From Nemertoderma westbladi (lineage: Eukaryota > Animalia > Xenacoelomorpha): a stretch of 64,000 nt of DNA. The notes beneath the pieces were generated by a model. That model made no database searches, was not told the DNA's origin, and was given only the letters and a program-made list of their open reading frames with translations. Positions 6,790-57,700 of this stretch are shown piece after piece (position 1 is the stretch's first letter; each line of letters opens with the position of its first letter). The position numbers were made by a program, and so were the translations under genes. Location of the stretch: contig JAUCBJ010001497.1 in NCBI GenBank assembly GCA_032718475.1, positions 1-64,000 of the forward strand, in the 5' to 3' direction.

Positions 6790-7195
6790 CAAACTTAGTT
6801 CCAATCGCACATTTTCAAATGCGAACTTAGTTCCAATTGAAACGAATTTAGTTCCAAAATAAATTTTACAAAGCGAATTTAGTTCCAATCGAGGCGAACT
6901 TAGTTCCAATCCCAGAATATAAAAACGAACTTAGTTCCAATGGATGCGAATTTAGTTCCAATGCATGCGAATTTAGTTCCAATGCATGCGAATTTAGTTC
7001 CAATGCATGCGAATTTAGTTCCAATGAAAGCGAATTTAGTTCCAATGCATGCGAATTTAGTTCCAATGCATGCGAATTTAGTTCCAATGCATGCGAATTT
7101 AGTTCCAATGAAAGCGAATTTAGTTCCAATGCAAGCGAATTTAGTTCCAATGGAAGCGAATTTAGTTCCAATGGGTACGAACTTAGTTCCAATGT
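6790..7195 (-). repeat. 21-bp minisatellite (ATTGGAACTAAATTCGCATGC-type), reverse orientation
   Basis: Tandem GCGAATTTAGTTCCAATGCAT units; these explain the spurious LELNSHA/ANLVPM ORFs. Confidence 0.95.
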
Positions 7196-7269
7196 TTCAA
7201 TCATGGGGTTAGCCACGTAGTAGGCGAAGCCTATTGCGTATTGCCACTATTTGGGGTGGGTCAGGGTCA

Positions 7270-8437
7270 GGCATCTGGCTGTTATCTTTGTTGACTTCTT
7301 CAAGGCCTTTGATTCAGTCTCTCGCTCACGTATGTTCAGCATACTTTCATTATATGGGATTCCTGATGAAATTATTGCAGCAATAAGATCAGTATACGAT
7401 GGTTCGACAACATTTGTGTCTACTGTTGACGGTGACACAGAACCATTTGAAGTGTTATGGGGCGTCCTCCAAGGAGACACACTTGCACCATTCTTGTTCA
7501 TTATTGTGGTTGACTATGTTCTACGCATGTCCTTAGATCATCATAATGATGATGGGGTGATGATAACTCCACCTACTGGCTCCAGAAGTCGAGGAAATCC
7601 TGCCAAGTACCTAACTGATCTAGACTTTGCTGATGACTTAGGAGTACTCTCGGAATCACTAGAGGGAGCCCAACGGCTCCTCAGCTCATTAGAACATGCT
7701 GCTTCTAGTGTTGGTCTTTTTATTAACTCCAGAAAGACCACAATTTTGACAGTTAACTTTGAAAGTCCTCAGCAAGTCTCTGATCGGATGAGCATAAGCT
7801 CAAAGGATGGTATGCTTGAGCATGTGGACGACTTCTGTTACCTGGGATCATGGATCCGGAAGTCAGGTGAGGATACGTAAGGGAAAGGCATGGGCAGCCT
7901 TGAATAGGCTTTCCAGGATTTGGAAGTCACCGAGAATTAATCGGAAACTTAAGGTCCGATTATTTAGAGCAGCAGTAGTTCCAGTACTCCTCTACGGGAG
8001 TCCATGCTGGGCTCTAACTGCTGAGGACACCAAATCTCTGGATGGCACATTCACAAGAATGCTACGCCGGGTTCATTGTGTCAAGTACAATGCACACATC
8101 TCCAACCAGACACTATATAACATTGGAGGTGTCTCATTGGTTCCCCCAAGCTTGACACTAGAACAAAATCGCCTCCGCTTTGCAGGACATTGCTTTCGCC
8201 GTGAGGACCAGCCAGTGCATAATCTTGTACTTTGGCAGCCTCATGGAGTGAATAAGCATGGTGGACAGCCCATGACTTTCTTGAGACGCATCTTAAAGGA
8301 CACTGGCCTTGAAGATGCGGATGATCTAGCAAATGTCATGGGCGATAGGGAGTTGTGGCGGTGCAATTTTGTTGACAAGCCGGCACAGCATTCTTAAAAA
8401 TGCAGCTGCAATGCAGCATGCCGATCCTAGTAGTAGT
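7270..8437 (+). mobile_element. 5'-truncated RTE-clade LINE (RT domain), frameshifted
   Basis: FVDFFKAFDSV, GVLQGDTLAPFLF, LDFADDL, RLRFAGHC; (TAG)n tail; short TSD AGGGTCA (7263-7269 / 8438-8444); 8-bp deletion near 7873 relative to the 27.3-kb copy. Confidence 0.92.
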
Positions 8438-9359
8438 AGGGTCAACAATAATTGCAATAAATTGTAAAATCCTTCCGTCATATTTAAAAAACGAAGTATT
8501 ATTAATGAATTAAATGTATAATTACACATTTTGAAATATATATTAATCACGAGTATACTGATACTGACTGACTGAGTCTGTAGTATTATATACTCAAGTC
8601 ATGCACATTGTGCCATTTTCACAGCAAATACAATATTTACCAGTTGTTTGGGTTAGGAGGTTGGGCGTTGTTTTTTACAATGAATATGATTTTAAATGAT
8701 TAAATATAAATGAATTTAATTGAATTGTTTGGGTTAAGGGGTTGGGCGTAGTTTGGGGTAAGATTGTTTTGGTTAGGAGGTTGGGCGTTTTGGGTTAGTT
8801 ATTTACAATTATTATTTAATCATCCACCTAATAGTGTCCTTAAACATTCTTCGCCAACTACGTGGCTCGCCCCACACCTGAAACATTGGAACTAAATTCG
8901 CTTCCATTGGAACTAAATTCGCTTGCATTGGAACTAAATTCGCATCAATTGGAACTAAATTCGCATCCATTGGAACTAAATTCGCTTGCATTGGAACTAA
9001 TTATAAATGAATTGTTGTGGGGTGGGTGACGGCGAATAAATATATATGTTATAGTACATTATGATAATGCTCTCCATAGCGAAAAATATCAACCGCCCCT
9101 ATTGGGGCTCGAACCCGGTACCTAGGTTTCAAACGGTTTATTCGCCGTCACCCACCCCACAACAATTCATTTATAATTAATTAACACGTATGGCCGGCAT
9201 ACGGGGTTACAGTGGTTTCTACAACACTGTATAATAGTTATTCTTTGAGGCATGGTTGCCATTTCTGGCAGAGCACGGGAATAACGTTGTACTTTACTAT
9301 GAGTGACGTAAAAAGGCCTAAAAATGATACCCCACTCCATAGCGAATAAATCTTCTACC

Positions 9360-9465
9360 GCCCTGGTAGCTCAGTGGTCTTAGGACACACACTCGGCTGA
9401 TGATAACCGGAAGTTTGAAACCTAGGTACCGGGTTCGAGCCCCAATAGGGGCGGTTGATATTTTT
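9360..9465 (+). promoter_or_regulatory. tRNA-like internal Pol III promoter (A box, B box) and T-run, repeated in each 370-bp unit
   Basis: GCCCTGG-TAGCTCAGTGG (A box 9367-9377), GGTTCGAGCCC (B box 9432-9442), acceptor-like pairing CCGCCCT/GGGGCGG, and TTTTT at 9461-9465. Confidence 0.8.
9391..9434 (+). ncRNA. Putative type I hammerhead ribozyme (first of five copies)
   Basis: Stem I ACUCGG/CCGGGU; core CUGAUGA (9397-9403); stem II AAC-CGGAA-GUU; GAAA (9417-9420); palindromic stem III ACCUAGGU; GUA cleavage triplet ending at 9428. The base of stem II is U.U rather than the usual G-C. Confidence 0.8.
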
Positions 9466-11723
9466 CGCTATGGAGAGCATTATCATAATGTACTATAACA
9501 TATATATTTATTCGCCGTCACCCACCCCACAACAATTCATTTATAATTAATTAACACGCATGGCCGGCATACGGGGTTACAGTGGTTTCTACAACACTGT
9601 ATAATAGTTATTCTTTGAGGCATGGTTGCCATTTCTGGCAGAGCACGGGAATAACGTTGTACTTTACTATGAGTGACGTAAAAAGGCCTAAAAATGATAC
9701 CCCACTCCATAGCGAATAAATCTTCTACCGCCCTGGTAGCTCAGTGGTCTTAGGACACACACTCGGCTGATGATAACCGGAAGTTTGAAACCTAGGTACC
9801 GGGTTCGAGCCCCAATAGGGGCGGTTGATATTTTTCGCTATGGAGAGCATTATCATAATGTACTATAACATATATATTTATTCGCCGTCACCCACCCCAC
9901 AACAATTCATTTATAATTAATTAACACGCATGGCCGGCATACGGGGTTACAGTGGTTTCTACAACACTGTATAATAGTTATTCTTTGAGGCATGGTTGCC
10001 ATTTCTGGCAGAGCACGGGAATAACGTTGTACTTTACTATGAGTGACGTAAAAAGGCCTAAAAATGATACCCCACTCCATAGCGAATAAATCTTCTACCG
10101 CCCTGGTAGCTCAGTGGTCTTAGGACACACACTCGGCTGATGATAACCGGAAGTTTGAAACCTAGGTACCGGGTTCGAGCCCCAATAGGGGCGGTTGATA
10201 TTTTTCGCTATGGAGAGCATTATCATAATGTACTATAACATATATATTTATTCGCCGTCACCCACCCCACAACAATTCATTTATAATTAATTAACACGCA
10301 TGGCCGGCATACGGGGTTACAGTGGTTTCTACAACACTGTATAATAGTTATTCTTTGAGGCATGGTTGCCATTTCTGGCAGAGCACGGGAATAACGTTGT
10401 ACTTTACTATGAGTGACGTAAAAAGGCCTAAAAATGATACCCCACTCCATAGCGAATAAATCTTCTACCGCCCTGGTAGCTCAGTGGTCTTAGGACACAC
10501 ACTCGGCTGATGATAACCGGAAGTTTGAAACCTAGGTACCGGGTTCGAGCCCCAATAGGGGCGGTTGATATTTTTCGCTATGGAGAGCATTATCATAATG
10601 TACTATAACATATATATTTATTCGCCGTCACCCACCCCACAACAATTCATTTATAATTAATTAACACGCATGGCCGGCATACGGGGTTACAGTGGTTTCT
10701 ACAACACTGTATAATAGTTATTCTTTGAGGCATGGTTGTCATTTCTGGCAGAGCACGGGAATAACGATGTACTTTACTATGAGTGACGTAAAAAGGCCTA
10801 AAAATGATACCCCACTCCACAGCGAATAAATCTTCTACCGCCCTGGTAGCTCAGTGGTCTTAGGACACACACTCGGCTGATGATAACCGGAAGTTTGAAA
10901 ACCTAGGTACCGGGTTCGAGCCCCAATAGGGGCGGTTGATATTTTTCGCTATGGAGAGCATTATCATAATGTACTATAACATATATATGCATTGGAACTA
11001 AGTTCGCATCCATTGGAACTAAATTTGCATCAATTGGAACTAAATTCGCATGCATTGGAACTAAATTCGTTTTAGTTTTTCTCTAATTATTGGAACCAAG
11101 TTCAAATTGGAACTAAATTCGCCAAAATTGGAACTAAATTCGTTTCCATTGGAAATAAATTCGCTTGCATTGGAACTAAGTTCGCATCCATTGGAACTAA
11201 ATTCGCTTCCATTGGAACTAAATTCGCTTCCATTGGAACTAAATTCGCTTGCATTGGAACTAAGTTCGCATCCATTGGAACTAAATTCGCATCCATTGGA
11301 ACTAAATTCGCTTGCATTGGAACTAAGTTCGCATCCATTGGAACTAAATTCGCATCAATTGGAACTAAATTCGCATCCATTGGAACTAAATTCGCATCAA
11401 TTGGAACTAAATTCGCATGCATTGGAACTAAATTCGTTTTCGTTTTTCTCTAATTATTGGAACAAAGTTCAAATTGGAACTAAATTCGCCAAAATTGGAA
11501 CTAAATTCGTTTCCATTGGAACTAAATTCGCTTGCATTGGAACTAAGTTCGCATCCATTGGAACTAAATTTGCTTCCATTGGAACTAAATTCGCTTCCAT
11601 TGGAACTAAATTCGCTTGCATTGGAACTAAGTTCGCATCCATTGGAACTAAATTCGCATCCATTGGAACTAAATTCGCTTGCATTGGAACTAAGTTCGCA
11701 TCCATTGGAACTAAATTCGCATC

Positions 11724-14700
11724 TGTACTATCTGATACTGGCGTACCACTGACTGACATACCAGCTACCTGCAAATGGCTGACAATTTTGATAATGTTAA
11801 AGATGATATATTGTCGTTATTCGCAGTAATAAAAACAAAGAAATATGTAACCTGTGACCAAGAGACCCAGCTGAGTGAACTATTAAGCGCTTTGACCTCG
11901 CTACACTCGAGGTCTCGAGATGATTTCACCGCAACTCTGGCAAATCTCGCCGAATCACGGAAAGAAACGGCGGATGCGCGAAAAGAAACTGTGGCCGCAA
12001 AGGACGAGCTCTTGAAGTTCCTGCAACTCGGCCCATCTACCATGGCTACTCCAGGACCCGGACCCGGCAGGTCAACATACAGTGCAGTCGTGCAAAGAAA
12101 CCCGGTTCCAGATCCACACTCACCGCCGTCGAATAACGGACCATACGCCACGGATACGGACCGCAACTTCCGTCGCCCCGCCCCGGCGATACAAGGTTGC
12201 AGAGCTGGTGGTCCACTTCGTGTTGCCAAAGGAAACCCAGTCCAAGCCGTCGGGAAGGCGCATGTTCATATCGGCCGACTAGACCCATCGACAAAAAGCA
12301 AGGAAGTTGCTGACTTTCTTCAATCCCAAGGAATCCCTTTCGACGACGTAACTCCACTACCGCTTAAAGATGGTAACTCACCTTATCTAAGTTTCCATAT
12401 CACATGCGATCAACAACATCGCGACACCCTAATGGACCCTGGATTGTGGGAAACGGGTCTCACAATCCGGAACTACTGACTCACGAACGCCGAACGCGAG
12501 GCACTCAGTCTACGTCGGCGCCCCGAACGCGAATTCGCTGGTGGAACCTCCAGCAGCTCACAGCAATACTCAACAAATACCGGTAACTAGGACAGGAGCA
12601 CGGAGGTACAACTACTTCTATGGAATGTGGAAGGTCTCCGCTATTTAGTAGACAATTTATCTGAATCTGAATTATATGGTAAGGCCAATGTCGTGTTATT
12701 TACTGAAACTATGTACACGGACAAAGCATTTTATTCTAACTCGTATTACTCTTTTACTCACCCTGCGACAAAGTTAAACAGACGGCGCCCTATTGGCGGC
12801 CTTATGACTCTGTGCAGGCCGCACCTCAACCCTTCCTGTGTGAAACAAACAAATAAATACATTGTTATCAAAACCTTGGTATCCTTCTTTATTGTTTTCT
12901 ATTTTACCCCCGAAACCCCACTGGATGAAATACTTATGGAAATAACTGAAGCACTGTCTTATACCAAAAACACAACCCCTATTGTTATAGCGGGAGATTT
13001 TAATTGCAGACTAGACCACGGATCTCGTGGTTCCGATTTAGTTGACGATCTGACCAACATCGGGTTTAGCTGTCTCAGCTCCCCGGATATCCCGACGTAC
13101 ATATCACCGCAAGGTGAAAGTGTAATCGATTTAATATTCGTGAGTTACCCAGCAATTGTTCCTACGTTGCTACCGCCTACAATAATCTTGTCAAATCCCA
13201 TAAGGAAACACCAGCCGGTGACCGTTAAGTTTGTTTTCCCTGCCGATATTCATGATTCAAAATTACCGAACCCCATTCCTCGTCTGTCGAGGCAGATCGA
13301 TCGTAACGCATTTATATCGCACCACAATATTCCAATGGTTAGGCTACTTCTATCTAACAACGAAATAGATGCAGCTACAGACCTACTGACTCTATCAATT
13401 GCAGACTCCACACCATCCACTCGCAAACCCCGCTATGGAAAACCGTGGTATGACTCGGAGTGCAAGACTCTAAAGAAACAGTTAATTCACTGTATGTCTC
13501 GTCGTAATCTCTCGGCAATGGACTGCTCGCAGTTTTGGAATATCCGCAAAAGCTACAAGTCGCTCCTCAAACGGAAACGAGTTGCCTACGAGGAAGCTAC
13601 ACTGGCAGAATTGGTCAGCGACTCCGAAGTTAAACCATGGTTAATCACCAAGGATCACAAACGGACTATTGCACCAATAGACTCAGATACACTCGAGACA
13701 CATTTCCGCAACCTTCTTGGTGTTAGAGTAGATCCCCCCAATGTTCTACCAGTTCCAATCCCTTCGTTGGATGAACTTGAGGGGGAGGAATGGTACAATG
13801 CGCCGATTACGGAAGAGGAAATATCCGCCAGTATAAACGACTCCAAGAATAACAAAGCTTCGGGTGTAGATGGAATATTCTACGATCATCTCAAGTTAAC
13901 CAAACCATTTATAATAACAATTCTCTGTCTATTATACAATGCCTGTCTCGATATCGGTAAACTACCGCAAATCTGGAAACAGTGTATAATAATGATCATC
14001 TATAAAGAAAGGGGCATTCTCAAACCCAGATAATTATCGCGGCATTGCACTCATCTCCGTGTTACTGAAAACTCTCACTTCAATCGTAAACAAACGCGTC
14101 CGATGCTTTACGTCTCACCGGATACCTAGGGAACAATACGGTTTCATGCCAAACAGATCTACATTACAGGCACTAAACGCACTTATATCCGATATCAATT
14201 TGGCTTTGCAATCCAATCTGTCATCACAACGGAAAATGTATGTCGCTTTTGTTGACTTTAGAAAGGCATTCGACTTTGTCAACAGAGCTGTTTTATTAAA
14301 TAAGATATATGGATTCGGGATTAAAGGAAAATTATTTGTTCTGATAAAAGATTTACTCCAAAATTACATTCAGGTGTACGACGGCCTTTGTCTATCGAAC
14401 CTAATCGAGCAACTCCGCGGAATTCTGCAGGGCGACTGCTTCTCTCCTCCATGTTTTAATTTCTTTATCGCCGACCTAGCTATAGCACTACGACAAGGAT
14501 GTGCGATTCTAAAGTTTCTATTTTTTGCTGACGATCTCGCTTTCTACTCTTCCGATAGGAATGAAATACAACGCGGCCTAGACATTCTCCTCGACTGGTG
14601 TACTCGTAACGGAATGGAAGTCAACCTCGACAAAACTAAAATTTTAAAATTCCGCAAAGGGGGTCGTCTCGCTACTACCGACACTTTTAGCTACAATGGA

Positions 14701-15579
14701 AATAGCGTCACCATCTGTAACAATTACGAATACCTAGGACTCACGCTTCAGCCATCACTTTGTTTCTCGCAGCACATTAAAAAAGAAGAAGAAAAAAGTT
14801 TATGCAACAATAGGGTCTATAAAGAATCTCAAGCTATTGTCCGTTGACGCAGGTTTAAAACTATTTAAATTAAAAATTGCACCAATGGCTTTGTATGCTC
14901 TACCCGTCTACTCTCGCTTTCTAACGATATCAAATTTAAAAGATCTAGACAGAATAAAATCGACATACATAAAGCGACTTCTAGGGCTACATATAAGTGC
15001 TTCGTCCACAATGGTGCTACACCTCGTAAACGAAAATTCGCTTATTGACGACATACTTCTAAAAGCTCCAAATCTATTCGCCCGCGACCTGATTGATCAA
15101 TATAATGCATTTCGAACAAATCGCGAACTCAATTTCGTTACTGAGAATTATTTACTCGGTCCTGCGTTCAATTCATTTACCTGGCGACTATCCAATCAGA
15201 AGAACTGTCATGTGGTCACGAGAGCCACGTGTCACGGGTTTCACCACAAAATATGCACGAACTCACAGCCTTTCCACACACTATCAACCGATTGTATTTG
15301 CCGATTTTGCCTTCTTCCCTGCCCAGACCGTTACCACGCCTTCTCTTGCGCCCAATGCCCCACAATGGCTGATCTCGCAACAAAACTCTAACATGCTAGC
15401 CCGCTCAGGCCACACCATAAGTAGTATATTGTCCCACTCGTGCTCCTAAGTAATCAATTAATACCAATGGTGATGGGTAATAATTGCAATTCAATTATAT
15501 TAATGTGCTAATAAATATATAATTAATATAATTGGTTACCTCGTTGGAGGTGTAAAGTGAAAAAAAAAATAAAAAAATA
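11724..15579 (+). mobile_element. Full-length APE-type LINE (CR1/L2 group, possibly Daphne-like): ORF1 plus frameshifted ORF2
   Basis: ORF1 11775-12479 (VHIGRLDP..PGLWETG). ORF2 pieces 12627-14033 (WNVEG, AGDFN, VIDLIF), 14059-14847 (QYGF, FVDFRKAFD, QGD, FADDL) and 14837-15391 (Cys/His-rich C-terminus). AATAAA, A-rich tail, and TSD AAATTCGCATC (11713-11723 / 15580-15590). Confidence 0.93.
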
Positions 15580-16225
15580 AAATTCGCATCAATTGGAACT
15601 AAATTCGTTTTCGTTTTTCTCTAATTATTGGAACCAAGTTCAAATTGGAACTAAATTCGCCAAAATTGGAACTAAATTCGCTTGCATTGGAACTAAATTC
15701 GCTTCCATTGGAACTAAATTCGCTTGCATTGGAACTAAGTTCGCATCCATTGGAACTAAATTCGTTTCCATTGGAACTAAATTCGCTTGCATTGGAACTA
15801 AGTTCGCATTCATTGGAACTAAATTCGCATCCATTGGAACTAAATTCGCTTGCATTGGAACTAAGTTCGCATCCATTGGAACTAAATTCGCATCAATTGG
15901 AACTAAATTCGCATCCATTGGAACTAAATTCGCATCAATTGGAACTAAATTCGCATGCATTGGAACTAAATTCGTTTTCGTTTTTCTCTAATTATTGGAA
16001 CAAAGTTCAAATTGGAACTAAATTCGCCAAAATTGGAACTAAATTCGTTTCCATTGGAACTAAATTCGTTTTCATTGGAACTAAATTCGCATGAGGCTTA
16101 AGTTGGAACTAAGTACGGGGAATCTTACAACATTGGTATATACAGTAGAAAGTGGAGCTTACTCAGAAGGTTTTACAACTTCCTAGAAATTATTTTTCAT
16201 ATATTTATATATTTACTTAAACCAG

Positions 16226-18112: not shown

Positions 18113-21100
18113 TGTAGTAGGCCTAGCCTATCAATCTCAGTTCCGATTTTATATCCGATAGCCTCATTGACCCTCCATCTGTAGATAAACCATCTTTTTT
18201 AACAACCTCATGTCACCCAACGGGATTTCTAGGGTCCACCACTGGTCCCAGGCAGACACATCTGCAGACACACTCTCAATCTGCTCCAACAGAACCACAT
18301 CAAGCCAATCTACCCCGTTCCTTATGCGGCCCGTGCAGCAGGCAGTGCCTCACCAAAAGCAACGGTGGCCTCCGTAAACACAAGGCCCTGGATGGCTCCC
18401 ATTGTCCTGGATCCGGTTCTCTACCACTACCCCTTCAGCAGGTGGTCAGCCCCACCTCCAACCAAACTCCTGTCTCAGGGCCTTCCTGCGAGCCACCCAA
18501 CCCAGCCCTGAAACAAAGACCTTGTGAGGCACCCAGGTTCAATTATGCTGCACATTTGACAAACCTGTTCATAACTCTCTCTAAGATTAAAACCCTGACC
18601 GCATCCCGCATGGCGCCTGCACATCCGCCGCATCAGCCTACACCCACCTATGCACTTCTGTGACCCAGGACAATTCTGTAAAAAAATGGATCAACCTACT
18701 CGCCTTCCCCTATTGTCTCCGTGTCCCATCTTGCAATACCCGGATAAGACGCTGTAACAAATCCAACCACCCCAGCCGTGTTGAAAAGTCACTTACCTCT
18801 AAGGTCAAAGACCAAATCTCTGACTACCTCGATCTAGCCCTTGGCACCCCACCCATTGCCCTCCCCACCCCTCCTAGACGATGCCCACTCAAGACGGATT
18901 CCCAAGCAATCCATGATGAGCACTTAGGCAATCTCATATCCTCCAAAATAGAAGAAGGTAATGTCAAGGCCGCCGCCCGCCTGGCCCCCTCGGCCACCTC
19001 TATTGCACCCGCAACTCCCAAAACACTCCAGGCCCTCCTTTCACTTCACCCTCCAGCCGTTCCAGTTGATGTCCTAGATATCCCTCTCATCGAGATCTCC
19101 CTTCCAGAGATCATGAAATCTATCCGATCTTTTCCAAACGGTTCTGCCGCCAGCCCTGACAAACTTCGTCCTCAATTCCTTAAGGACTTTTGCTCCCACC
19201 AATCCAGCGATGCCGCCATGGGAGCTCTGAAAGGCATCACCAGCTTATCCAACCAACTAATCAAAGGATTAGCTCCAGAAGCCATCCTCCCTTTTCTGTA
19301 TGGGGCCCGACTATGTGCCTTTACCAAAGTCAACGGCGGAATCCGTCCCATCGCAGTAGGTTGCACCCTTCGACGTCTATCTGCTAAGACTGGGTGCCAC
19401 CAATCTTCTAAGAACTCCCAACTCAAACTTGCCCCCCACCAACTAGGCCATGGAATACCCCATGGCTGAGAGGCCACTGTTCATGCATCCTGGAGATTTC
19501 TTCAGAAGTCCGTTGAGCCAACCATCATGGTCAAAATTGACTTCAAAAACGCCTTCAACAGCGTTCATCGCGGGCCCATCCTCCATTCAATCCTGCAGAA
19601 CCTTCCACCCCTGTACCCCATCGCTTTCCAGGCTTACTCACAACCCACCCACCTCTTCTATGAGGACACAACCATTTCTTTGGAGGTTGGAGTCCAACAG
19701 GGTGACCCTCTAGGCAACCTTTTCTTCAGCTCTGACACCCACGAAATTGTTGAAAGTGTCGAAACTCCCCTCAATGTCTGGTTCTTAGACGATGGGTCCC
19801 TTGGAGGGACCCCCTCCGTTGTTGCCTCTAACCTTGAATCTGTGATCTCCAAAGCTGCTAATCTCGGCCTCCAGATTAAAGCATCGAAATGTGAGTTGAT
19901 TTTTTCCACCAACTTTCCACCCAATCTGAAACTTGAGACTGGCGCCATATTCGATGCGATCACTCCCAGACTCAAATGTATCGACCTCGTCGATGCCTCC
20001 CTTCTGGGTGCTCCGCTCGGTGAACCAGCTATGGAGTCCATTCTCCAAAACAAAGCATCCAAACTGGTAACTTTCACCAATCGCCTCCAACTGCTTTCCT
20101 CTCATGACGCTTTATACCTGCTCCGCCACTGTTTCGCAATCCCCTAATGTATATCCTGCATTGCTCCCCTTGCTTCCTTGCCCCATCTCTATCCGACTTC
20201 GACTCTTCAATTAGAGCTGCACTTGAGTCAATGCTGAATATTCGGCTCGATGACTCTTCCTGGTCTCAAGCCTCTCTCCCCATCGCTTCAGGTGGGCTTG
20301 GCATGCGTAGCACGAGGGACGTCTCACTGCCGGCCTTCTTGGCCTCTGTCTTCAAGATGCGGTCCCCTGCTTCGTGCCCTTCTGCCCCCCTCTATCTCCA
20401 ACTCGACTAACCCGCCCATCTCAAAGGCCCTATCGCTCCTATCTTCTGGCACCGACACACCTCCCAACCCATCTTTCCAAATGGCCTGGCATGATCCCCT
20501 GTGCTCCAAAACCTATGACTCCCTCCTAGCTTCTGCCAACACCCCAAAGCGAAGGCCCGACTCATATCCTCTAAGGCTAAACACTCAGGTGATTGACTCC
20601 AGGTGCTCCCCATCGCTTCCCTGGGGCTCCGTCTTAGCGACGACCAGGTCCGGATCGGCACAGCCATCTGTCTCGTCGTGCCAGTCTGTGCCGAGCATTC
20701 TTGTCGAGGCTGTGATGCTGTAGTCGACACAAGCGGGACTCATGGTCTCAGCTGCCTCCACAACTATGGTAAATACTCCCGGCACGCTGAGGCCGACGAT
20801 GTGATCCACCGCGCCCTGACATCTGCCAGTATATCATCCACCCTCAAGCCCCACGACCTCTGCAAGGATGGCCGGAAATCAGACGGTATGTCTGTTGCCC
20901 CTTGGCACCAAGGACGTAGCCTCATTTGGGACTTCACCTGCTGGGATACCTTAGCCCAATCCTATCTCCCGATTACATCGATAACCGAAGGAGGTGCTGC
21001 CGCAGCGGCTGAGGCAACCAAAGCTGCAAAATATGCCGACCTGGCTCACAACTATCACTTTGTGACGGTTGCCTCCGAAACCCTCGGCCCAATCGGTGAT

Positions 21101-23601
21101 GAGGGCACCGTTCTCCTCAATGAGATCGGTCGCCGAATCGCCCGCGCCACCGGGGAACCAAGGTCCATCTTCCTGTTCCAGCGGCTATCGATTGCCATCA
21201 CCCGTGGGAATGCCAGCGCCATCATAGGGACCCTCCCCACCCAAGCTAGCCTCGATGAAGTGTACCTACTTCGCTAGACCTGTTATGACAGATTACAGAA
21301 TGTGTTACGAACAAACTACCCGGCCTAACCAATAAAGACACAAAACTGCTCTATTTACTAGACAGGGCAATCAGGAGTGTATAATTGCTAATGTAGGGCT
21401 GCTAAATACAAAACCGCTACTTACCGTTGGATGGCGCTAATCTGCCGTCCGCTAATATATTTCCTAATTTTCTACGGCTCCTGCTAATTTCTCGTTCCTT
21501 TCTCTACCAATTACTCGATAGAGAGCTAACTGTTCGAATATATGAGCCACGCGGGAATAACCAAAACAATAAACCCGAATCGGCTCCCTAAGCTGACTTA
21601 AGACGAGTGTGAGAGATTTGACACTCAGAGTGTATTTCTATGGCCTAATTTTACTGTAAAATGCGTTTACAACTACGTCCTCTCTAATCTAATCTAATCG
21701 CATCTAATCGCAATACTGGGGTTCCCTAACGGAATGTGTGAATGTGAGATATTTAAAATAATCAAAAATCGATGCAGCGTTTATTTCGGGACTCAACTTA
21801 TCTGCGGCTGGCTTTAGACCAGCAATTTACTGATGCGCGCTGTATACTGTATACTACGATGTGAATTTTGTCCACTAATTCAAATAACCGCCCAGCGTGA
21901 ATAGTGTACGGTACTCTAAAATTATTACCTTAACTACCCTCCGCTATGCTGCGTACAAATTCTTAATTTTACTAAATAATTACAGTCACAAATATGTAAC
22001 GGCGTACTAATTACTAAGTATTCCAGAGTACGTAATTCTAAATTATTACGCAACGGGTTACACTAGCAACAGCCTAAAATACCGTATTATTTTCGACCTA
22101 ATCAGAAATTAATTACAGTAAACTAAGAAATAGAAATCAATCAAAGGGAAAAGAGCGCCTATTCAAGCATTCGTGATTTATTAGGCACACTTTAATAACA
22201 CACCAATCAGAGTATCAATCTATAGTTTATACTTACCAATTTAGTTCTTAACGCACAATTCACAATCAGCAGTCAGATAGCAATCGCAACTCGCAATGTA
22301 AAGCACGCAGATCTCTCCCGGCTACGTCTAGGCTTCCTAACTAACCCAATTCCTGTCCCCCTAATACTACAAAATAGAGACAAAATCTGGATCATCAGCC
22401 CCTAATTACTGAACCGGCGTACCTGACCCACTCTACGCTGCAAACATGCACACGCAATAGTAATCCCCCCAATGTTGCTTGTCTTTGAATCCTCCGCACT
22501 CCCATCGTCGCTAACCCCCCAATGCGCCCGCCGCGCTTACCGGTACCCTAGCCCTCCATCAGAATGAATAGCTACCGTAGCGGCACATGCAAATCACAAA
22601 GTCTGACAGTCTAAGAAATCCCGTAGGATTATTGTCGAAAGGAATCACATAGAACCATTTACTAAAGGGTAGAAATCATAGTTCCAATTTGTAATTAACA
22701 GTGATCGTTAAGATTGATTGAGAAACACAAACAAGAATCAAACAGAAATTGCAAATTAGCGAATCATTGCAAGAAAATCAAAAGGGCAGTAATTTACACA
22801 GAAAAACTAAGCATCGAATAATAGTTGAACAGGAATAAGGTGAAGGTGAGCTGTGTGGGGTGTGGTTGTGGAAGGTAGGTAACAATGGAAGTACGCCAAT
22901 TTATAGGTGATTTGAGAAGGGTGATGCAGTCGATCTCTCATTGGCTCCCCAATCCGAGCTACCATTAGACCAACCTGGAAGCAGTTAGGCCAATAAGAGA
23001 GCCGGATTGTGAACCTATTGCTCCCTGAAATCGCAAATTGCCACCATAAAAGGTAATTTTCCCGATGCTTAATTTGGCGGTACTAATAATATCATGCACA
23101 AATATTAATTTAGCGCAATTATAGAGAAATTAAAACCAGTAGCTAGCATCATCAAGGCTAATAACGGCAAGCCCATATCCAGGGTCCAACAAGGACTTGC
23201 TACCCTGGAACTATCTACTTATATCCTATTACAAAATTACATAGGTAGGGCTACATACTATACAAAATGGATGAGTCAAAATATATGGGCGTTTCAATTT
23301 CCTTACCTAAATATCATTGCGCGTTATGCCTTATCTAAATAATTATACTGCATCACGGACTAATATATGATACTATATAATGGACTAATATATTATACTG
23401 TATGATGGACTAATATATGTACAGTATAACGGACTAATATATTTCATAATGTAGGTACAGCGCCATATACCGTAACAGAATGGATCTAGTTTCCTGTCAC
23501 TTCTGGCTCTAACTCTAGTTACGTTACCAGTTACCCATTAATGTTGTGCTAATTATTTCTTATTAATGTGTTGTACTATTTGTAATTAAATTATTGGTAA
23601 A
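18113..23601 (+). mobile_element. CRE-clade (restriction-like endonuclease) non-LTR retrotransposon, frameshifted; coding ~18209-21277; 3' UTR interrupted by a solo LTR
   Basis: GGIRPIAVGCTLRRL, KIDFKNAFNSV, GVQQGDPLG, WFLDDG, PIASGGLG, and RLE motifs RH..RKSDG..WDFTCWDTLA..K..KY..ETLG..FQRLSIAITRGNA. Outer boundaries are approximate. Confidence 0.88.
21303..23477 (-). mobile_element. Solo LTR (2175 bp)
   Basis: Termini TGTTACG...CGTAACA form a 7-bp inverted repeat; 5-bp TSD GAATG (21298-21302 / 23478-23482); no ORFs. Orientation is inferred only from a minus-strand TATAAA (~22900) and AATAAA (~22180). Confidence 0.82.
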
Positions 23602-27317: not shown

Positions 27318-28557
27318 GGACCATGGAACCCATTTTGGCACGAAGAAGGATAATTGAAGAATTATCAAAAAAGAAAGACAGGCATCTGGCTGTTATCTTT
27401 GTTGACTTCTTCAAGGCCTTTGATTCAGTCTCTCGCTCACGTATGTTCAGCATACTTTAATTATATGGGATTCCTGATGAAATTATTGCAGCAATCAGAT
27501 CAGTATACGATGGTTCGACAACATTTGTGTCTACTGTTGACGGTGACACAGAACCATTTGAAGTGTTATGGGGCGTCCTCCAAGGAGACACATTTGCACC
27601 ATTCGTGTTCATTATTGTGGTTGACTATGTTCTACGCATGTCCTTAGGTCATCATAATGATGATGGGGTGATAATAACTCCACCTACTGGCTCCAGAAGT
27701 CGAGGAAATCCTGCCAAGTACCTAACTGATCTAGACTTTGCTGATGACTTAGGAGTACTCTCAGAATCACTAGAGGGAGCCCAACGGCTCCTCAGCTCAT
27801 TAGAACATGCTGCTTCTAGTGTTGGTCTTTTTATTAACTCCAGAAAGACCAAAATTTTGACAGTTAACTTTGAAAGTCCTCAGCAAGTCTCTGATCGGAT
27901 GAGCATAAGCTCAAAGGATGGTATGCTTGAGCATGTGGACGACTTCTGTAACTTGGGATCATGGATCCGGAAGTCAGGTGAGGACCTTCGAATACGTAAG
28001 GGAAAGGCATGGGCTGCCTTGAATAGGCTTTCCAGGATTTGGAAGTCACCGAGAATTAATCGGAAACTTAAGGTCCGATTATTTAGAGCAGCAGAAGTTC
28101 CAGTACTCCTCTACGGGAGTCCATGCTGGGCTCTAACTGCTGAGGACACCAAATCTCTGGATGGCACATTCACAAGAATGCTACGCCGGGTTCATTGTGT
28201 CAAGTACAATGCACACATCTCCAACCAGACACTATATAACATTGGAGGTGTCTCATTGGTTCCCCCAAGCTTGACACTAGAACAAAATCGCCTCCGCTTT
28301 GCAGGACATTGCTTTCGCCGTGAGGACCAGCCAGTGCATAATCTTGTACTTTGGCAGCCTCATGGAGTGAATAAGCATGGTGGACAGCCCATGACTTTCT
28401 TGAGACGCATCTTAAAGGACACTGGCCTTGAAGATGCGGATGATCTATCAAATGTCATGGGTGATAGGGAGTTGTGGCGGTGCAATTTTGTTGACAAGCC
28501 GGCACAGCATTCTTAAAAATGCAGCTGCAATGCAGCATGCCGATCCTAGTAGTAGTA
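27318..28557 (+). mobile_element. 5'-truncated RTE-clade LINE
   Basis: RT ORF 27527-28516 is nearly identical to the 7.3-kb copy; (TAG)n tail; TSD GAGAACTGACT (27307-27317 / 28558-28568). Confidence 0.93.
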
Positions 28558-28849
28558 GAGAACTGACTCGGTTCGGATTCGGTTAGGGTCTAATAATCTA
28601 TATGAAATATAGAACTTTTAGCACTGAACGATGCCCTCTGCCGCACTAAGTGCTTTTTAATGGATTTTTAATATGTTATAACGTGTCACTGTGGTCTGTT
28701 TTTAATAATTAATAATATATCAATTTATTTGATTAAAAGCAATGAAATGAAATGAAATATAATAAAGAAAGAAAGTTTGCACTAATGATGTAAGACCTAC
28801 GTCAATATATTTATCAGCCTGTGATATGATGTAAGGCCGTCGTGTACTA

Positions 28850-47270: not shown

Positions 47271-48512
47271 TCAAATCGAACTGATACCATATTCATCCTC
47301 CATCATCTTCATATATGCCGCTACAGCTGCCTTGCGGTACACACCCATAGCCATACTAGAGTCTTTGTGCTTAGCTGTCAGTTCCATTAACATTCGATCA
47401 ATTCTATTTTCATCATCACACAAATATATAAAACACTTTACTTTATTCGCGTTTGTTTTAATTGAATTTTTATCTAAGCAGTCGGAATTTATTCGCTTTT
47501 TAGTTTCTCTAAATACTTTTAATTCTCTCTCCATTCTCTCAAAACCAAATATTTCTATTTTATCCCAAAGTGTTTTATTGAAGTGTTTGTAAAGTTTCCA
47601 ATCTCCGATATTTATATTTCTGAGTTTTTCTGTATCAAAAATATCCAGTTTTTGATTTTGCACACCTTTACTCCTATAAACGACGTCTTCAAATTCCCAA
47701 CACATTAAATCTTTCAACAAAATCATCGATTCGTCAAAATATTCCAATAAAATCACCAAATCAAATTCCTCATCAATCTCTTTTATAATATCATCATAAT
47801 CACTATCATTGGGTGAATTTACATTATAGCCGAATTCGTATAACAAAGGATTTAAAAACGACCTATAATTGAGCATAGTGCCATTTGGATTACTAATGAA
47901 ATATTCATAAATATCTTTTGTAGTATTGAGTGCTAACTCATTTGCGTCACGAAAATTTGAATATGGAGCATAATAAGTCATGTAGGATTTGATGACATTT
48001 GAAGGGTCACGAATTCCAACAATATACATGGTATCTGGTGGCATCAACTTTTTTACATCAATGTTAAATTTTCCGTGTAGAAATGAAACATTAGGATGTT
48101 GTGTGAACTGGTTTAAATGTTCGCCCCACCAGTAACTCCATTGCCGACCTCTACATTTCGCAAATGATTCTTCATCGGACAGAGCGGGTGTTAGATTGTG
48201 ATTAATAGCGTGATTAATAATCACAGAAACTGTGGTACGGGACCCAGTTCGGTGGGTCTTCAAGTAAAAAACATTCATTTTCGTTTTGCAACTTCCATTC
48301 AATTGTGTCACATTTGTTTCATTCTCTTCCACAAAGTTTTGAGCCGTAGTATACATTTGCATTCCTACTGAACTATAAGATATATTGTTGTCCAATTGTT
48401 TCACATACTTGTACACAAGTATAAGCATTGCTATAAGTATAAGCATAAAAGTGGATAAAGTTAATTTTCGAAAAGTCACATTATTGAGGTACATGTTTCG
48501 TTCCATACACAT
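47271..48512 (-). CDS. Galactose-3-O-sulfotransferase (GAL3ST/cerebroside sulfotransferase) family, type II membrane protein; uninterrupted CDS
   Basis: N-terminal TM (TLSTFMLILIAMLILVY), 5'-PSB FYLKTHRTGSRT, 3'-PB IRDPSNVIKS, FDLVILLEYFDESMILLKDLMCW, DWKLYKHFNKTLW. First ATG is at 48512; the true start is uncertain. Confidence 0.92.
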   Translation of the reverse strand: MCMERNMYLNNVTFRKLTLSTFMLILIAMLILVYKYVKQLDNNISYSSVGMQMYTTAQNFVEENETNVTQLNGSCKTKMNVFYLKTHRTGSRTTVSVIINHAINHNLTPALSDEESFAKCRGRQWSYWWGEHLNQFTQHPNVSFLHGKFNIDVKKLMPPDTMYIVGIRDPSNVIKSYMTYYAPYSNFRDANELALNTTKDIYEYFISNPNGTMLNYRSFLNPLLYEFGYNVNSPNDSDYDDIIKEIDEEFDLVILLEYFDESMILLKDLMCWEFEDVVYRSKGVQNQKLDIFDTEKLRNINIGDWKLYKHFNKTLWDKIEIFGFERMERELKVFRETKKRINSDCLDKNSIKTNANKVKCFIYLCDDENRIDRMLMELTAKHKDSSMAMGVYRKAAVAAYMKMMEDEYGISSI

Positions 48513-48739
48513 AAATTCGAGCAATGGAATCAATCATAAAGTATTATATGGTTTAAAATTCGAATGAAACTTAGAAATTTATTATTTAATTTATTTAATT
48601 GTCAACAAACTAAATTGCAACTGAGACCAGATCAGTTGACAACAGTCATTTGATATGGCCTATACATTGTTGCTACCAGTAAGTACACCTGTAGAACGGT
48701 GTGAATATTTAGGGCATATCTTTCATAGTTCAACTTGTG

Positions 48740-50823: not shown

Positions 50824-51428
50824 TACTACTACTATAATCGACCTGCTGCATTGAGCTGCTATACTGGCTTAACAAAAACGTTTCGTCACCACCATGGGAT
50901 CCACAATTCACCACCACAACTCCCTATCCCCCATGACAATTGTGAGATTATCCGCATCTTCAAGGCCAGTGTCCTTTAAGATGCGTCTCACGAAAGTCAC
51001 AGGCTGTCCACCATGCTTATTCACTCCATGAGGCTGCCAAAGTACAAGATTATGCACTGGCTGGTCCTCACGGCGAAAGCAATGTCCTGCAAAGCGGAGG
51101 CGATTTTGTTCTAGTGTCAAGCTTGGGGGAACCAATGAGACACCTCCAATGTTATATAGTGTCTGGTTGGAGATGTGTGCATTGTACTTGACACAATGAA
51201 CCCGACGTAGCATTCTTGTGAATGTGCCATCCAGAGATTTGGTGTCCTCAGCAGTTAGAGCCCAGCTTGGACTCCCATAGAGGAGTACTGGAACTACTGC
51301 TGCTCTAAATAATCGGACCTTAAGTTTCCGATTAATTCTCGGTGACTTCCAAATCCTGGAAAGCCTATTCAAGGCTACCCATGCGTTTCGCTTATGTATT
51401 CGAAGGTCCTCACCTGACTTCTGGATCA
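50824..51428 (-). mobile_element. 5'-truncated RTE copy (diverged subfamily with a different 3' end)
   Basis: ORF 50908-51456 matches the RTE C-terminus; (TAC)n tail remnant at ~50824-50833. Confidence 0.88.
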
Positions 51429-51630
51429 GGTGAGGTAATGCGTAATGCTGTGTCAAATAGGTTTAGGATTCAAACCAAAAGTTGAATGAATATTTTTACA
51501 TATTATGTAACAATTAAGTGATGCTTAAATTATTAGCTAACATAATTATATAACATATTCTCTGGTCATCGAACACATACTGAATATTAATCCAGACGTG
51601 ATCTGTCCTGTTATATGTAACATAGTTAAT

Positions 51631-53686: not shown

Positions 53687-53879
53687 TCGACCAATTAATT
53701 AATTGTTTAATTAATCGATTTGTACACTTCCCTCACATTAACATTAACTCACCGCTGCCTGACTGGCCCTACTGCCCTACTGCCCTTCTGTGACTGGCCC
53801 TACTGCCCTACTGCCCACTGATGTAGTTTGCTCGGAATCCCAAACTTCCTTTTGCGCAAGGGAAAAAATCTCAGCAACG

Positions 53880-54764
53880 ATGTCGAATTCTCAAGAAAAA
53901 CCACAATTGAATTTGTCAGATCTCGCCGGAATATCGAAACAACAATTTCTAGCAAAGATTACAAAGGAACGATTGTACGAAGCATTACAATCCGCAGGAC
54001 TTCTCGATGACTCAAGGGATACTCAACTGAACGAGACAAGTTCACAGCAATGCAAATCAGATATGGCCACCATAATCCGTGATGCAATTCGTATCGAGTT
54101 GGCGGATGTTAAGGGCGAAATCTCTGGCGTTAATAAGAAACTAGACGAGCTGGGTGCTCTACGATCAAAAGTAACGGCGCTAAACGACGTGGTTGACAAC
54201 GTGAAGAAAGATAATGCAAAACTACGCAGCGAGGTAGAAGGTTGTAAAGATGTTATAGCAAAACAGCAGCGTCAACTAGAAGTTTTTGACACTGACAGAA
54301 GATCGAAGAATATAATTATTCGTGGGATACCAGAAATAAATCCAGAAGTAGATCGCGCATTTTCAATAAAGATATTGAAGATTGCCGGCATGGAGAACCC
54401 TAACAACGTTTCGTTTAGACGATTAGGACGACAGTCAGATACAACTAATGGGACACAACAGGGTGGGAGTGCCCCGAGTCGTCCTCGACCGGTGTTAGTT
54501 GAGCTGGAGTCTCGCTATATTCGTGATAAGCTACTAGTTGGTGCCAAATCGTTGTCTAAGGCAGGAGAGGAATTTCACAACGTATATATTAAACGAGATG
54601 AGATACCCCAGACCCTTGAAATGAATAGCAAACTGTATAAAGCGCTGCACGAGGAGAAACAGAAGCCCGTCAATATCAATGCAAACGTATTTATTAACTG
54701 GCGTACAAGGTGTGTGATGAGGGATAATACTGTATTATTTCAGGTACCCAAATTGGGTTTTTAA
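53880..54764 (+). CDS. LINE ORF1p (coiled coil plus L1-type RRM-like region)
   Basis: Heptad region followed by RSKNIIIRGIPE..FRRLGR..RPRPVLVEL..VYIKRD. Confidence 0.88.
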   Translation: MSNSQEKPQLNLSDLAGISKQQFLAKITKERLYEALQSAGLLDDSRDTQLNETSSQQCKSDMATIIRDAIRIELADVKGEISGVNKKLDELGALRSKVTALNDVVDNVKKDNAKLRSEVEGCKDVIAKQQRQLEVFDTDRRSKNIIIRGIPEINPEVDRAFSIKILKIAGMENPNNVSFRRLGRQSDTTNGTQQGGSAPSRPRPVLVELESRYIRDKLLVGAKSLSKAGEEFHNVYIKRDEIPQTLEMNSKLYKALHEEKQKPVNINANVFINWRTRCVMRDNTVLFQVPKLGF

Positions 54765-57700
54765 TAGGGCCGTGTGTAGATCTTAACATTCTTTGGTTTA
54801 ATATCGCTGGAATTCAGAATAAGTTAGAAAATAGAAATACTGTACACTTTTTACTCCAATTTGACATTATATTTTTATTGGAAATTAATAGTGCTTTGAA
54901 TTTTACTGTACCTGGGCTCAAGTTTTTAAAGCGAAGTAAAATTTTACAAGGCAGAGGCCACCGTGGCGGTGTGGCTCTATTTGCCAAACCGTTTTTAGAG
55001 GATTTTATTACTGAAATAAAAGACAATTATGAGGACCAGTTGTGGATAAAAATACCTACCGTAGATTCAAGGTATATCGGAGGATGTTACATCCCCAATA
55101 GCAGTTCAAAATTTTTTGATATATCATGTATTGGGATTATTCAGGGTATGTTTATGTCTGGGGATGCCCTATTGGCCGGAGGTGATTTAAACAGTAGAAT
55201 TGGTTACCCCGGTTGCCAACCGCTGGATGGGGCCTATAAAACCTGGCCAGATAATACTGTAAATAGCCATGGAAAAATATTGAAACAAATGTGTACTGAC
55301 ACGGATGCAGTTATTGTGAACGGTTTAAAAGTACCATCATGTGATTTTCAGAGTGGTCTAACTTATAAAATAAAAGGAGTATGGAAGTCAGCTTTGGACT
55401 ATATAATAGTAGCGAGGTCTCACGTAGAAGGTCCCAACAATAAACTCAGGTCATTAACTATTTGGTCTGACATAACCTTACCATCTGATCATGCACCAAT
55501 TAGTATATCTATTAGAGCAAACGAGATGCCTCTGGCACTATTAGATAAGCGAGCAACGAGTTTAGGTACCTATGACAATTACCTTAAAAGAGGGCACGAG
55601 GTAGCACATCGATTGAAGCCAAACCAAAACAGTGTATCCAACTATACCCAGTATATGCGAGTCAATAACCCACCGCCGTCATTGAGTATAAACATGAGTG
55701 ATGTGCATTTCATTTGTAACGAACTTAGTAACCAATTATATGCTGCAGCAAAAACAACCCGTTGTAGGATAAAGGCGAGAGCTGGCAGTACCGACACCAC
55801 ATCTTGGGGGAATGAGAGGTGGAACCACTTACTTGCATGTAAAGACTCTAAAGCGTTATGGGCTGCCATTGATTGGAGAGGTAATGTATCTACGCTGTCA
55901 ACTCAAACAGATAGTCCAACATGCCCAACAGACGATGAATTTCAAGCTCATTACAATGCGCTATTAAATGATCCTGAGTATATAGAAGAGCAAATTGAAT
56001 CTGAAATTAATATCCCTCTTTTAGATGAAGATATAACAATCAATGAAGTCAATGACGCAGCCTCGAAACTGAAATCGAACCGTGCTAGCGGTCCAGATGG
56101 ATTGGCATCCGAATATTTGAAATCACTTCCAATGAACTGGCTGATTACTTTAACAATGATATTTAACTTGGTATTCTCTTCTAGAATTTACCCAAACACA
56201 TGGGCATATGCTACACTTGTGTCAATCTTTAAGAAAGGAAATCGAATGTTATGTTCGAATTATAGGGGGATCAGTGTCATGAACTGTATACCTAAGCTTT
56301 ATGATATGATATTAACTAGTAGGCTCATGGCCTGGTATAAACCATTACCTGAGCAAGCAGGTGCTAGTAAGGGCCGAGGATGTATTGAGCAAATTCTGGC
56401 GATACGATTGCTTTGTGATCATGCGAGGAAATGTAAAGCTATACTCTATGTGGTCTTTGTAGATTTCGAAAAGGCCTATGACAATGTTAATCGTAACTAC
56501 ATGTTTGAAATGTTGAATAAGCTTGGCTGTGGTTCTAGAATGCTTAGAGCTTTACAGGCTATGTATAAGACAACTATTGCTTCAGTCCACTCACTATATA
56601 TTATTTGTAATAAAGGCGTCCGCCAAGGTTCACCAGGAAGCTTATACTTGTTCGTAACCATTATTGATTGTTTTGTAAGAGCACTTAAAAAGCTCCCACC
56701 CGATAGCTGGCTCAGAAAGCTCCACAGTGTACTACTTATGGATGATACTGCAATAATGGGAACATCTAGGGAGGCAATTATTGTGAAATTAAAAGTGCTT
56801 GAGGAATTCTGCCGGACTTCTGGGATGATCATCAATATTAAGAAAACCAAATTTATTGTAATAAACGGAACTGACGATGACAAACGCGACTTCATTATTG
56901 GGAACAAAGCAATAAAAAATACAAATTCATATATATATCTGGGCTCACCTATTTCTGCAGACGGTTTAGTTTCAACCGCAATAGAGCTGATAGCAAAGGA
57001 GAAACAGTCGCACTTATTGAAATTCTCTACATTCATCAATAAGAACCCTGATGTACCATTCCGTGTGAAAAGGAAAATTTTTGATGCTGCCTTAGTATCA
57101 GCAATTACATATGGGTGCGAAACATGGTGCGGTGGGTCAATAGTTCCAATGACGAAGATTTACATGTCAATGGTACGTCTGTTATTGGGTGTCCGACCAA
57201 CAACGTGTGGCGACATTTGCCTGATCGAGCTCGGTATTCCTGACTTTGAGACTTTAGTCCTGGACAAACAACGAAAATTCTTAAATAACTTCACTATTGT
57301 CGATGATTCCCCTCTAAAGATAGCTATGGAACTCGTTGAAGTTTCTAGAAGTCCAATGTACCTAGCTATGGAGAGGGTAAGGAAACTGCCCAATAATTAC
57401 CTTGATCAGCAGCATTCAAAACTCACGAAATCGGTAGTAACATCAATGACAACAAAACGTCACCTTTATAAACTAATGAACCCTACTACGTCACCACCTC
57501 ATTTATACTTTGATCCAAGGGTTCCAGAACGTCATAGGATATCCTGGTCCCGCTTCAGATTAGGCAGCCACAATTTCCCAGTTGAGCGAATGCGGTGGGC
57601 GAGAGTGAAACCAGAGGAGCGTTGGTGTCAGTGCGGGGCAATTCAAACTGAACAGCACTTAGTTACGGAGTGTCCTAAAACACTGAAACATAGAACAGAG

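Follow-up and report, generated by a model that had tools for sequence, protein, structure and literature searches.

A tandem repeat of Nemertoderma westbladi with a hammerhead motif nested between tRNA-Lys-derived A and B boxes and the marks of a Penelope-type insertion

Which polymerase transcribes the retrozymes of animals, and what mobilizes them? On the first question, a review calls these elements seemingly promoterless (PMC7761336); for the second, Penelope has been proposed from co-occurrence and from homology to pseudo-long terminal repeats (pseudo-LTRs, pLTRs). Both become directly testable in one 370-bp unit of DNA from Nemertoderma westbladi (Xenacoelomorpha), which carries mutable consensus boxes for RNA polymerase III (Pol III) and whose insertion has a textbook Penelope head-and-tail footprint. 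The unit is tandemly repeated in contig JAUCBJ010001497.1 (assembly GCA_032718475.1), of which positions 1 to 64,000 of the forward strand, hereafter the window, were analyzed. On balance, we favor reading the locus as one insertion of an abundant non-coding non-LTR retrozyme whose hammerhead ribozyme lies within a tRNA-Lys A/B box pair, and which would be transcribed by Pol III, cut by itself, circularized and copied by Penelope. The parts of this reading differ in strength: we hold membership of the retrozyme class with high confidence, mobilization by Penelope is very probable, and the Pol III boxes, judged by their sequence, are somewhat more probably a working promoter than a relic. The element is thus assigned to the non-LTR retrozymes and not to a new class, and the nested, overlapping layout is its unusual feature. 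The array and its units contain the following.

9137..10987, + strand: direct array of exactly five units (370, 370, 370, 370 and 371 bp), non-coding, 43% GC (Tandem Repeats Finder, TRF, and alignment)
9360..9378, + strand: tRNA-Lys-derived 5' part, with acceptor 5' strand and A box (9367-9377), by comparison with tRNA genes
9391..9434, + strand: type I hammerhead of copy 1, by motif alignment, structural descriptor and a weak Rfam match; cleavage predicted
9430..9453, + strand: tRNA-Lys-derived 3' part, with B box (9432-9442), T loop and acceptor 3' strand, by comparison with tRNA genes
9461..9465, + strand: run of five T residues (T5) seen in the sequence, once per unit, a candidate Pol III terminator
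10871..10915, + strand: copy-5 hammerhead, its GAAA strand lengthened by one A (alignment, descriptor)

TRF reports the array with a period of 370, 5.0 copies and 99% matches at 9137-10988, and the units start at 9137, 9507, 9877, 10247 and 10617. In the unit alignment no difference separates copies 2-4, copy 1 departs from them by one substitution (9189), and copy 5 has three together with the extra A that makes GAAAA, which an earlier note made from the letters of this DNA had already pointed out. The hammerhead of copy 1 has a 6-bp stem I (9391-9396/9429-9434), the core CUGAUGA at 9397-9403 and GAAA at 9417-9420 (both recurring every 370 nt), a stem II consisting of a U.U plus 3 bp, and a stem III whose single C-G pair is capped by a palindromic loop. 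Position 9428 is the last base of the cleavage triplet GUA, which likewise recurs every 370 nt, so that cuts are predicted after A9428 and also after 9798, 10168 and 10538; as the earlier note proposed, such cuts would release monomers of 370 nt that have the B box at their 5' end and, close to the 3' end, the A box. By structural descriptor, copies 1-4 each contain a type I hammerhead with a 6-bp stem I; copy 5 and the rest of the window, on both strands, give none. Five 370-bp units with A box, hammerhead and B box had been described, and TRF and the alignment bear out the units, while an intact hammerhead is limited to the first four; likely, the copy-5 hammerhead is inactive or its extra A is an assembly error in an A run. 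The caveat raised about the U.U at the base of stem II is real but minor, since the axolotl hammerhead HHR_Amex2, which shares the U.U, a short stem III and a tetraloop, cleaves, and does so best as a dimer (parts of PMC7229834).

Could such a motif be a chance match within an ordinary satellite, or within a tRNA-derived short interspersed nuclear element (SINE) moved by a long interspersed nuclear element (LINE)? The window is animal-type DNA rich in satellites and in LINE remnants, which would suit that explanation, as would the Rfam search that had been suggested as a check: no match in the window reaches the gathering score, a scan of 8900-9900 gives no hammerhead match, and a scan of 126 nt gives Hammerhead_HH9 at 9380-9451 with 19.7 bits and an E value of 0.0074, below the cut-off of 52. 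However, among 20,000 dinucleotide shuffles of one unit none contained a hammerhead, one contained an A and B box pair and none contained both, and natural variation avoids the core, as described below. The start of the units is not the 5' end of the tRNA, they have no poly-A or simple-repeat tail, and an inverted copy at the left end of the insertion overshoots the 3' end of the array by 40 nt. Together, we regard a satellite or SINE origin as very improbable. The sequence features of metazoan non-LTR retrozymes (PMC7229834, as far as its text could be compared; preprint 10.64898/2026.07.22.740005), namely tandem units of 150-450 bp, GC below 50%, a type I hammerhead, no open reading frame (ORF), a target-site duplication (TSD) of more than 4 bp and many copies, are all present: the 370-bp unit occurs five times at a GC of 0.43, a complete type I hammerhead occurs in consecutive units (four of five by descriptor, where at least two are expected), no stop-to-stop frame of at least 150 aa overlaps the array or the insertion, the flanking duplication has 14 bp, and the family is dispersed with a conserved core. 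Cleavage and circles are predictions. The earlier identification as a retrozyme-type tandem repeat thus stands on size, GC, hammerhead, coding content and TSD.

The family was followed in nine listed sequencing runs, six of which contain part of the stretch and four at least half of its words; these four come from three studies under one organism label, and one of them may be the source of the window. No RNA run is among the listed runs that contain the stretch. Three contigs at depth 3-5 from a run under another organism label (X5), conjectured to be RNA, were not counted as a sign of expression. In three DNA runs, one from each study, contigs matching 9200-9600 number 1093 (X1), 903 (X3) and 97 (X4), with identities from below 90 to above 99%, and the element is therefore one of a large dispersed multi-copy family. 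Among 40 of the 56 variant rows, the only position of the hammerhead core that varies is N7 (9401), and the B box has no variants. The commonest variant of stem I, T9393C (56-69% of depth), turns a U-G into a C-G pair, and G9409A in loop 2 reaches 47-70% of depth.

The ends of the cassette resemble tRNA-Lys. Without gaps, 9360-9378 agrees at 13-17 of 19 positions with 18 tRNA genes, 16 of which are tRNA-Lys, and 9430-9453 agrees with the same 18 at 18-19 of 24 positions, of which 18 were set by the search pattern. A pattern made from both tRNA ends matched 26 viral loci, and of the 27 tRNA genes there that fit both ends, 25 are tRNA-Lys, one is Met and one is Pyl. Because the ends match tRNA-Lys and the A box lies 64 nt from the B box, against 42-45 in the compared tRNA genes, the middle of the tRNA has been replaced: in this alignment of sequences, the hammerhead occupies the place from the 3' strand of the D arm to the variable loop and also overlaps the T-stem, in agreement with the position originally proposed for it. 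The first three bases of the B box double as the 3' strand of hammerhead stem I, and both boxes fit the consensus although the middle of the tRNA is gone. ARAGORN finds 0 tRNAs, Rfam gives no tRNA match in scans of the window or of the 126 nt, and a cloverleaf with D, anticodon and T arms is absent. As a side observation, the five bases at 9378-9382, just 3' of the A box, equal the anticodon loop of tRNA-Lys(CTT), a weak and post hoc match on which we do not rely; if it were real, the hammerhead would come after position 37, the usual site of tRNA introns.

A close precedent for such a combination is Sm-alpha/Sj-alpha of Schistosoma, whose tandem units likewise join a type I hammerhead to A and B boxes for Pol III (parts of PMC6765202 and PMC2576457). 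In Sm-alpha the order is A box, B box, hammerhead (PMC6765202, with a copy in the supplement of PMC8490949, both in part), whereas here it is A box, hammerhead, B box. Its tRNA part is whole enough to be called by tRNAscan, as tRNA-Gln (PMC2770079, in part), whereas the N. westbladi source is tRNA-Lys and forms no cloverleaf; and its hammerhead follows the whole promoter (the relevant part of PMC6765202), whereas only the N. westbladi B box overlaps stem I. We thus find tRNA-derived boxes in a hammerhead repeat, as in Sm-alpha, and no whole tRNA-Gln-like promoter upstream; as the order differs and the tRNA is Lys-like and not Gln-like, the unit does not belong to the Sm-alpha family, though it probably functions in a similar way. 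The earlier note had added that the promoter would be intact only in a circle or a tandem copy. This logic is not new, having been published for Sm-alpha, whose cleaved monomer loses a usable promoter and so requires tandem copies (PMC6765202 and PMC2576457, in part). For N. westbladi it applies to complementary DNA (cDNA) of a cleaved linear monomer and fails for genomic units, each of which, when complete, holds the whole A-hammerhead-B cassette because a unit runs on for about 78 nt past the cut. A circle or tandem is not needed to keep the promoter either, since a solo copy spanning 9335-9501 is flanked by unrelated sequence, 177 letters on one side and 174 on the other (X1 record 6).

What probably moved the element is suggested by the ends of the insertion, which the earlier note, taking the array at 9137..10988 as the whole, had missed: an inverted head, a tail and a 14-bp TSD extend the element to 9001-10987, larger than the array first described.

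8987..9000, + strand: left copy of the 14-bp TSD, inside a 21-bp minisatellite, identical to 10988-11001
9001..9134, - strand: inverted 5'-truncated copy ("head"), the reverse complement of 9413-9546 (inverted-repeat search, alignment)
9507..9546, + strand: tail segment, rich in A, C and T, predicted unstructured (sequence, folding)
10988..11001, + strand: right copy of the 14-bp TSD, by identity to the left copy

The reconstructed 45-nt empty site occurs seven times without mismatch elsewhere in the window, in the surrounding arrays of the 21-bp satellite, a setting in which a 7-bp deletion in the satellite register is strictly still an alternative to duplication. The arms of the head (8995-9134/9413-9552) are 99% complementary, two unmatched bases (9135-9136) join it to the array, and its outer 40-43 nt, which extend beyond the 3' end of the array, are a Penelope-type tail. 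The Rfam miRNA matches around 8990-9190 were discarded, as they reflect the inverted head only. Both marks of Penelope-like insertions, an inverted 5'-truncated copy and a tail of 30-40 bp (parts of PMC8557442), are thus seen here, the latter as 40-43 nt. In Penelope the tail falls between two internal start sites of reverse transcription in an AC-rich stretch (PMC11167929, in part), and the tail here would span the distance between two such putative sites, at about 9506 and at 9546-9549. The direct array begins and finishes in one register, about 78 nt downstream of the cut site and not in the cleavage register; 3'-end priming on a cleaved linear monomer is therefore excluded, and the register fits internal priming on a circle or an uncleaved multimer. 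The argument concerns a single insertion, and the differences are spread so unevenly among its copies that unequal exchange or polishing may have followed.

The dispersed copies bear on the same point. Among 22 of 445 rows of loose ends, 3' ends with diverse AT-rich flanks group at 9487-9501 and 9549-9550, and family variants at 9488-9509 may have displaced the first cluster upstream of the true end. Opposite-strand joints make up 5 of the 15 joints listed, and the joint 9358/9438, found in X1, X3 and X4, resolves as head-to-head. Three of these five, at 9430, 9436 and 9438, have one side at most 10 nt downstream of the predicted cut, which hints faintly that cDNA synthesis sometimes reached the end of a cleaved template.

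If Penelope supplied the machinery, the unit might itself be a pLTR, belonging to an autonomous Penelope-like element with a captured tRNA or derived from such an element directly by deletion; the hammerhead would then be a passenger, circles would be unnecessary, and the array would have grown through unequal crossing-over or through tandem insertion into its own AT-rich junction. Penelope-like elements of the EN+ clades (PMC8557442, PMC11167929 and PMC4209133, each in part) share with this locus partial or full tandems, the 5' inverted truncated copy, the tail of 30-40 bp, a hammerhead in the repeat and an AT-rich junction. The stretch 9396-9549 is far more abundant than the remainder of the unit, as would be expected if it were common to 5'-truncated Penelope copies; Xenopus retrozymes are related to pLTRs (bioRxiv 2026.07.22.740005); insertion can proceed without cleavage, and the enzyme cuts its own AT-rich junction (PMC11167929, in part); and the inner copies of the array are identical where the outer ones are not. 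Unlike those elements, however, the insertion holds no ORF for a reverse transcriptase (RT) or a GIY-YIG endonuclease (a regular-expression search finds no GIY-YIG motif in the window), its canonical short hammerhead, with a 6-bp stem I and a stem II of 3-4 bp, is of the retrozyme and not the minimal pLTR type (PMC4209133, in part), and the core positions are kept across contigs. We therefore consider a pLTR origin unlikely, though less so than the satellite or SINE.

How would a retrozyme with internal boxes pass through one cycle? Pol III would initiate near 9360. T5, which lies 8 nt behind the tRNA end, is the only run of more than three T in the unit, and its position means that multimers from this promoter require read-through. 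The majority of transcripts would end there, at about 105 nt, with one hammerhead and a weak stem III; those that pass one T5 would carry two hammerheads, whose palindromic stem III could pair as a dimer, and both GUA sites would then be cut. When a two-unit transcript is modeled, pairing the hammerheads as a dimer by their palindromic stem III gains about 6 kcal/mol over folding each as a monomer. The monomer may be closed by an RtcB-type ligase, which has this activity in vitro on axolotl and mussel retrozymes (PMC7229834, in part), while stem I, the tRNA acceptor stem and a long hairpin would hold the ends of the monomer:

9324..9486, + strand: long imperfect hairpin with the tRNA-hammerhead cassette at its tip (inverted-repeat search, folds)

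The arms of this hairpin (9324-9349/9461-9486) are 81% complementary, and in the cleaved monomer the same arms are predicted to clamp both ends together. When folding is constrained to the hammerhead, GCUC of the A box pairs with GAGC of the B box and the acceptor stem is closed. The circular unit has a minimum free energy of -96.5 kcal/mol (z -2.2, 57% paired), and 2 of 100 shuffles are equally stable. Finally, the Penelope RT-endonuclease would nick both target strands 14 nt apart, and cDNA would begin internally at two sites about 40 nt apart, yielding the direct array and the short inverted head. A more ambitious and only tentative version fuses these steps into a single module, in which a tRNA-Lys with a hammerhead middle would be a Pol III promoter in DNA and, in RNA, a clamp that keeps the 5'-OH and cyclic-phosphate ends side by side for the tRNA ligase, and a leaky T5 combined with a dimer-dependent hammerhead would let only read-through transcripts become circles, which Penelope would copy in whole rounds. 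If this were true, polymerase and mobilizer would both be defined for animal retrozymes, and within one element.

Several observations weigh against the reading as a Pol III-transcribed, Penelope-copied retrozyme, and some of them favor other accounts. The hammerhead fold of this copy lies 9-12 kcal/mol above the ensemble in ViennaRNA, with pair probabilities near 0 (an uncalibrated comparison), and still 6 kcal/mol above it when both common variants are present. The model leaves the non-standard contacts of a hammerhead core unscored. Of predicted dimers of Xenopus retrozymes, eight of nine failed to cleave (preprint bioRxiv 2026.07.22.740005), and hammerhead cleavage is dispensable for Penelope insertion in vitro (PMC11167929, in part). 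No Penelope ORF was found in the window. The proposal to look for conservation and covariation among copies was answered in part: the core is conserved apart from N7, and among the variants considered above no two-sided compensatory change occurs in the stems, while G9395A (0.5-6%) disrupts a stem I pair. Since copy 5 carries four of the five differences of the array, unequal exchange or assembly polishing may have produced part of it. On the promoter side, G9376T (3.5-17%) changes the A box, position 9451 in the acceptor stem differs in about 79% of X1 depth, and summed depth, which here is not a copy number, is 7- to 33-fold lower over the A box than over the B box. The low A-box depth and the change at 9451 indicate that many relatives may lack the 5' half of the tRNA or have it altered; the drop itself may be 5' truncation or may reflect commoner relatives with another 5' part.

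The terminator raises a further difficulty. A run of four T residues can suffice to terminate Pol III in vertebrates. T5 could halt nearly all Pol III transcripts; hairpins upstream of a T run promote release (bioRxiv 2021.08.27.457903, in part). The same T5, standing directly behind the tRNA end, would suit a retrozyme that is mobilized by Penelope but obtains its multimers by read-through from Pol II or flanking promoters, its tRNA remnant being an RNA structure or in decay. Depth is low around the A box, with some variation there, and the acceptor stem is altered in most relatives, as this account expects; it also agrees with the view that metazoan retrozymes, seemingly promoterless, depend on read-through (PMC7761336, in part). 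On the other side, both boxes remain at consensus while the middle of the tRNA is gone, diverged copies still have an A-box-like string upstream (loose-end consensus before 9385, from 13 X1 contigs with an agreement of only 0.49), T5 is a weak Pol III terminator in yeast (bioRxiv 2021.08.27.457903, in part), and Sm-alpha makes use of A and B boxes (PMC6765202 and PMC2576457, in part). We judge transcription from outside the unit to be possible yet doubtful, more plausible than a pLTR origin.

With the Pol III-driven retrozyme as our preferred reading, what sets the unit apart from its relatives? Unlike the metazoan retrozymes that the review cited above calls seemingly promoterless (PMC7761336, in part), it has an internal tRNA-derived pair of A and B boxes, and its insertion has a direct Penelope footprint of head and tail, a feature absent from the main text of PMC7229834 (0 matches for "inverted"); bioRxiv 2026.07.22.740005 argues that retrozymes derive from Penelope. 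The collections searched contain no match that is related to the 370-bp unit in sequence. The TRIMp3 elements Cassandra, Helenus and Ajax are similar in being non-autonomous, in using a captured small-RNA gene as a Pol III promoter and in being transcribed from one repeat into the next, but they are LTR elements with a primer-binding site and polypurine tract, a TSD of 4-5 bp and no ribozyme, as described in sections of PMC10886601. The nested A-hammerhead-B layout was not found in the literature searched, a result that does not establish its absence from print, as key papers or their supplements may show one. As a pattern, it gives 0 matches in viral contigs, six in metagenome contigs, all of them unrelated, not in tandem and rejected by the structural filter, and one in prokaryote genomes, where the match is a tRNA-like RNA that lacks stem I; a family-specific pattern gives 0 in prokaryote genomes, and a looser pattern of hammerhead plus B box gives at least 120 loci in viral contigs, with 0 of 126 examined passing the structure filter. 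These collections contain little animal DNA, and the blanks say little about animals. In the layout, three bases serve both the B box and a ribozyme helix, a compact overlap of DNA and RNA codes, and it could provide a template for minimal circular-RNA expression cassettes.

These searches also turned up two unrelated loci. In Desulfonema magnum (L153:983-1765, - strand) there is a cluster of tRNA-like RNAs with long inserts, which are not hammerheads; one, whose anticodon arm contains about 70 nt, scores 46 bits to the Rfam tRNA model, another has its insert after the A box, and there are two weak YrlA matches. In a metagenome contig (L002:466-554), a good T-arm hairpin stands behind CUGAUGA and GAAA, with no Rfam match and no valid stem I.

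The surroundings of the insertion are themselves repetitive. The 21-bp minisatellite that received it occurs in both orientations, in blocks at 6926-7194 (- strand), 8884-9000, 10990-11723 and 15644-16092, and a 513-bp block is repeated at 97% (11042-11554 and 15580-16092). Two + strand blocks flank a LINE-like element at about 11757-15391, which suggests a further insertion into the same satellite. Elsewhere in the window, a single-frame gene at 47271-48533 (- strand, 420 aa) resembles galactose-3-O-sulfotransferase, its nearest atlas clusters being mostly from echinoderms and chordates, which we give as a lead only. A frameshifted retroelement at 18591-21277 has an RT domain and a Cys/His-rich C-terminal region, possibly a restriction-like endonuclease, and the 3' part of one RTE-like LINE is present in three copies at 95-98% identity (7224-8439, 27379-28558 and 50902-51462). 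A nearly intact two-ORF LINE-like element lies at 53763-57811, with a 333-aa ORF1 and a 1027-aa frame that contains an RT domain.

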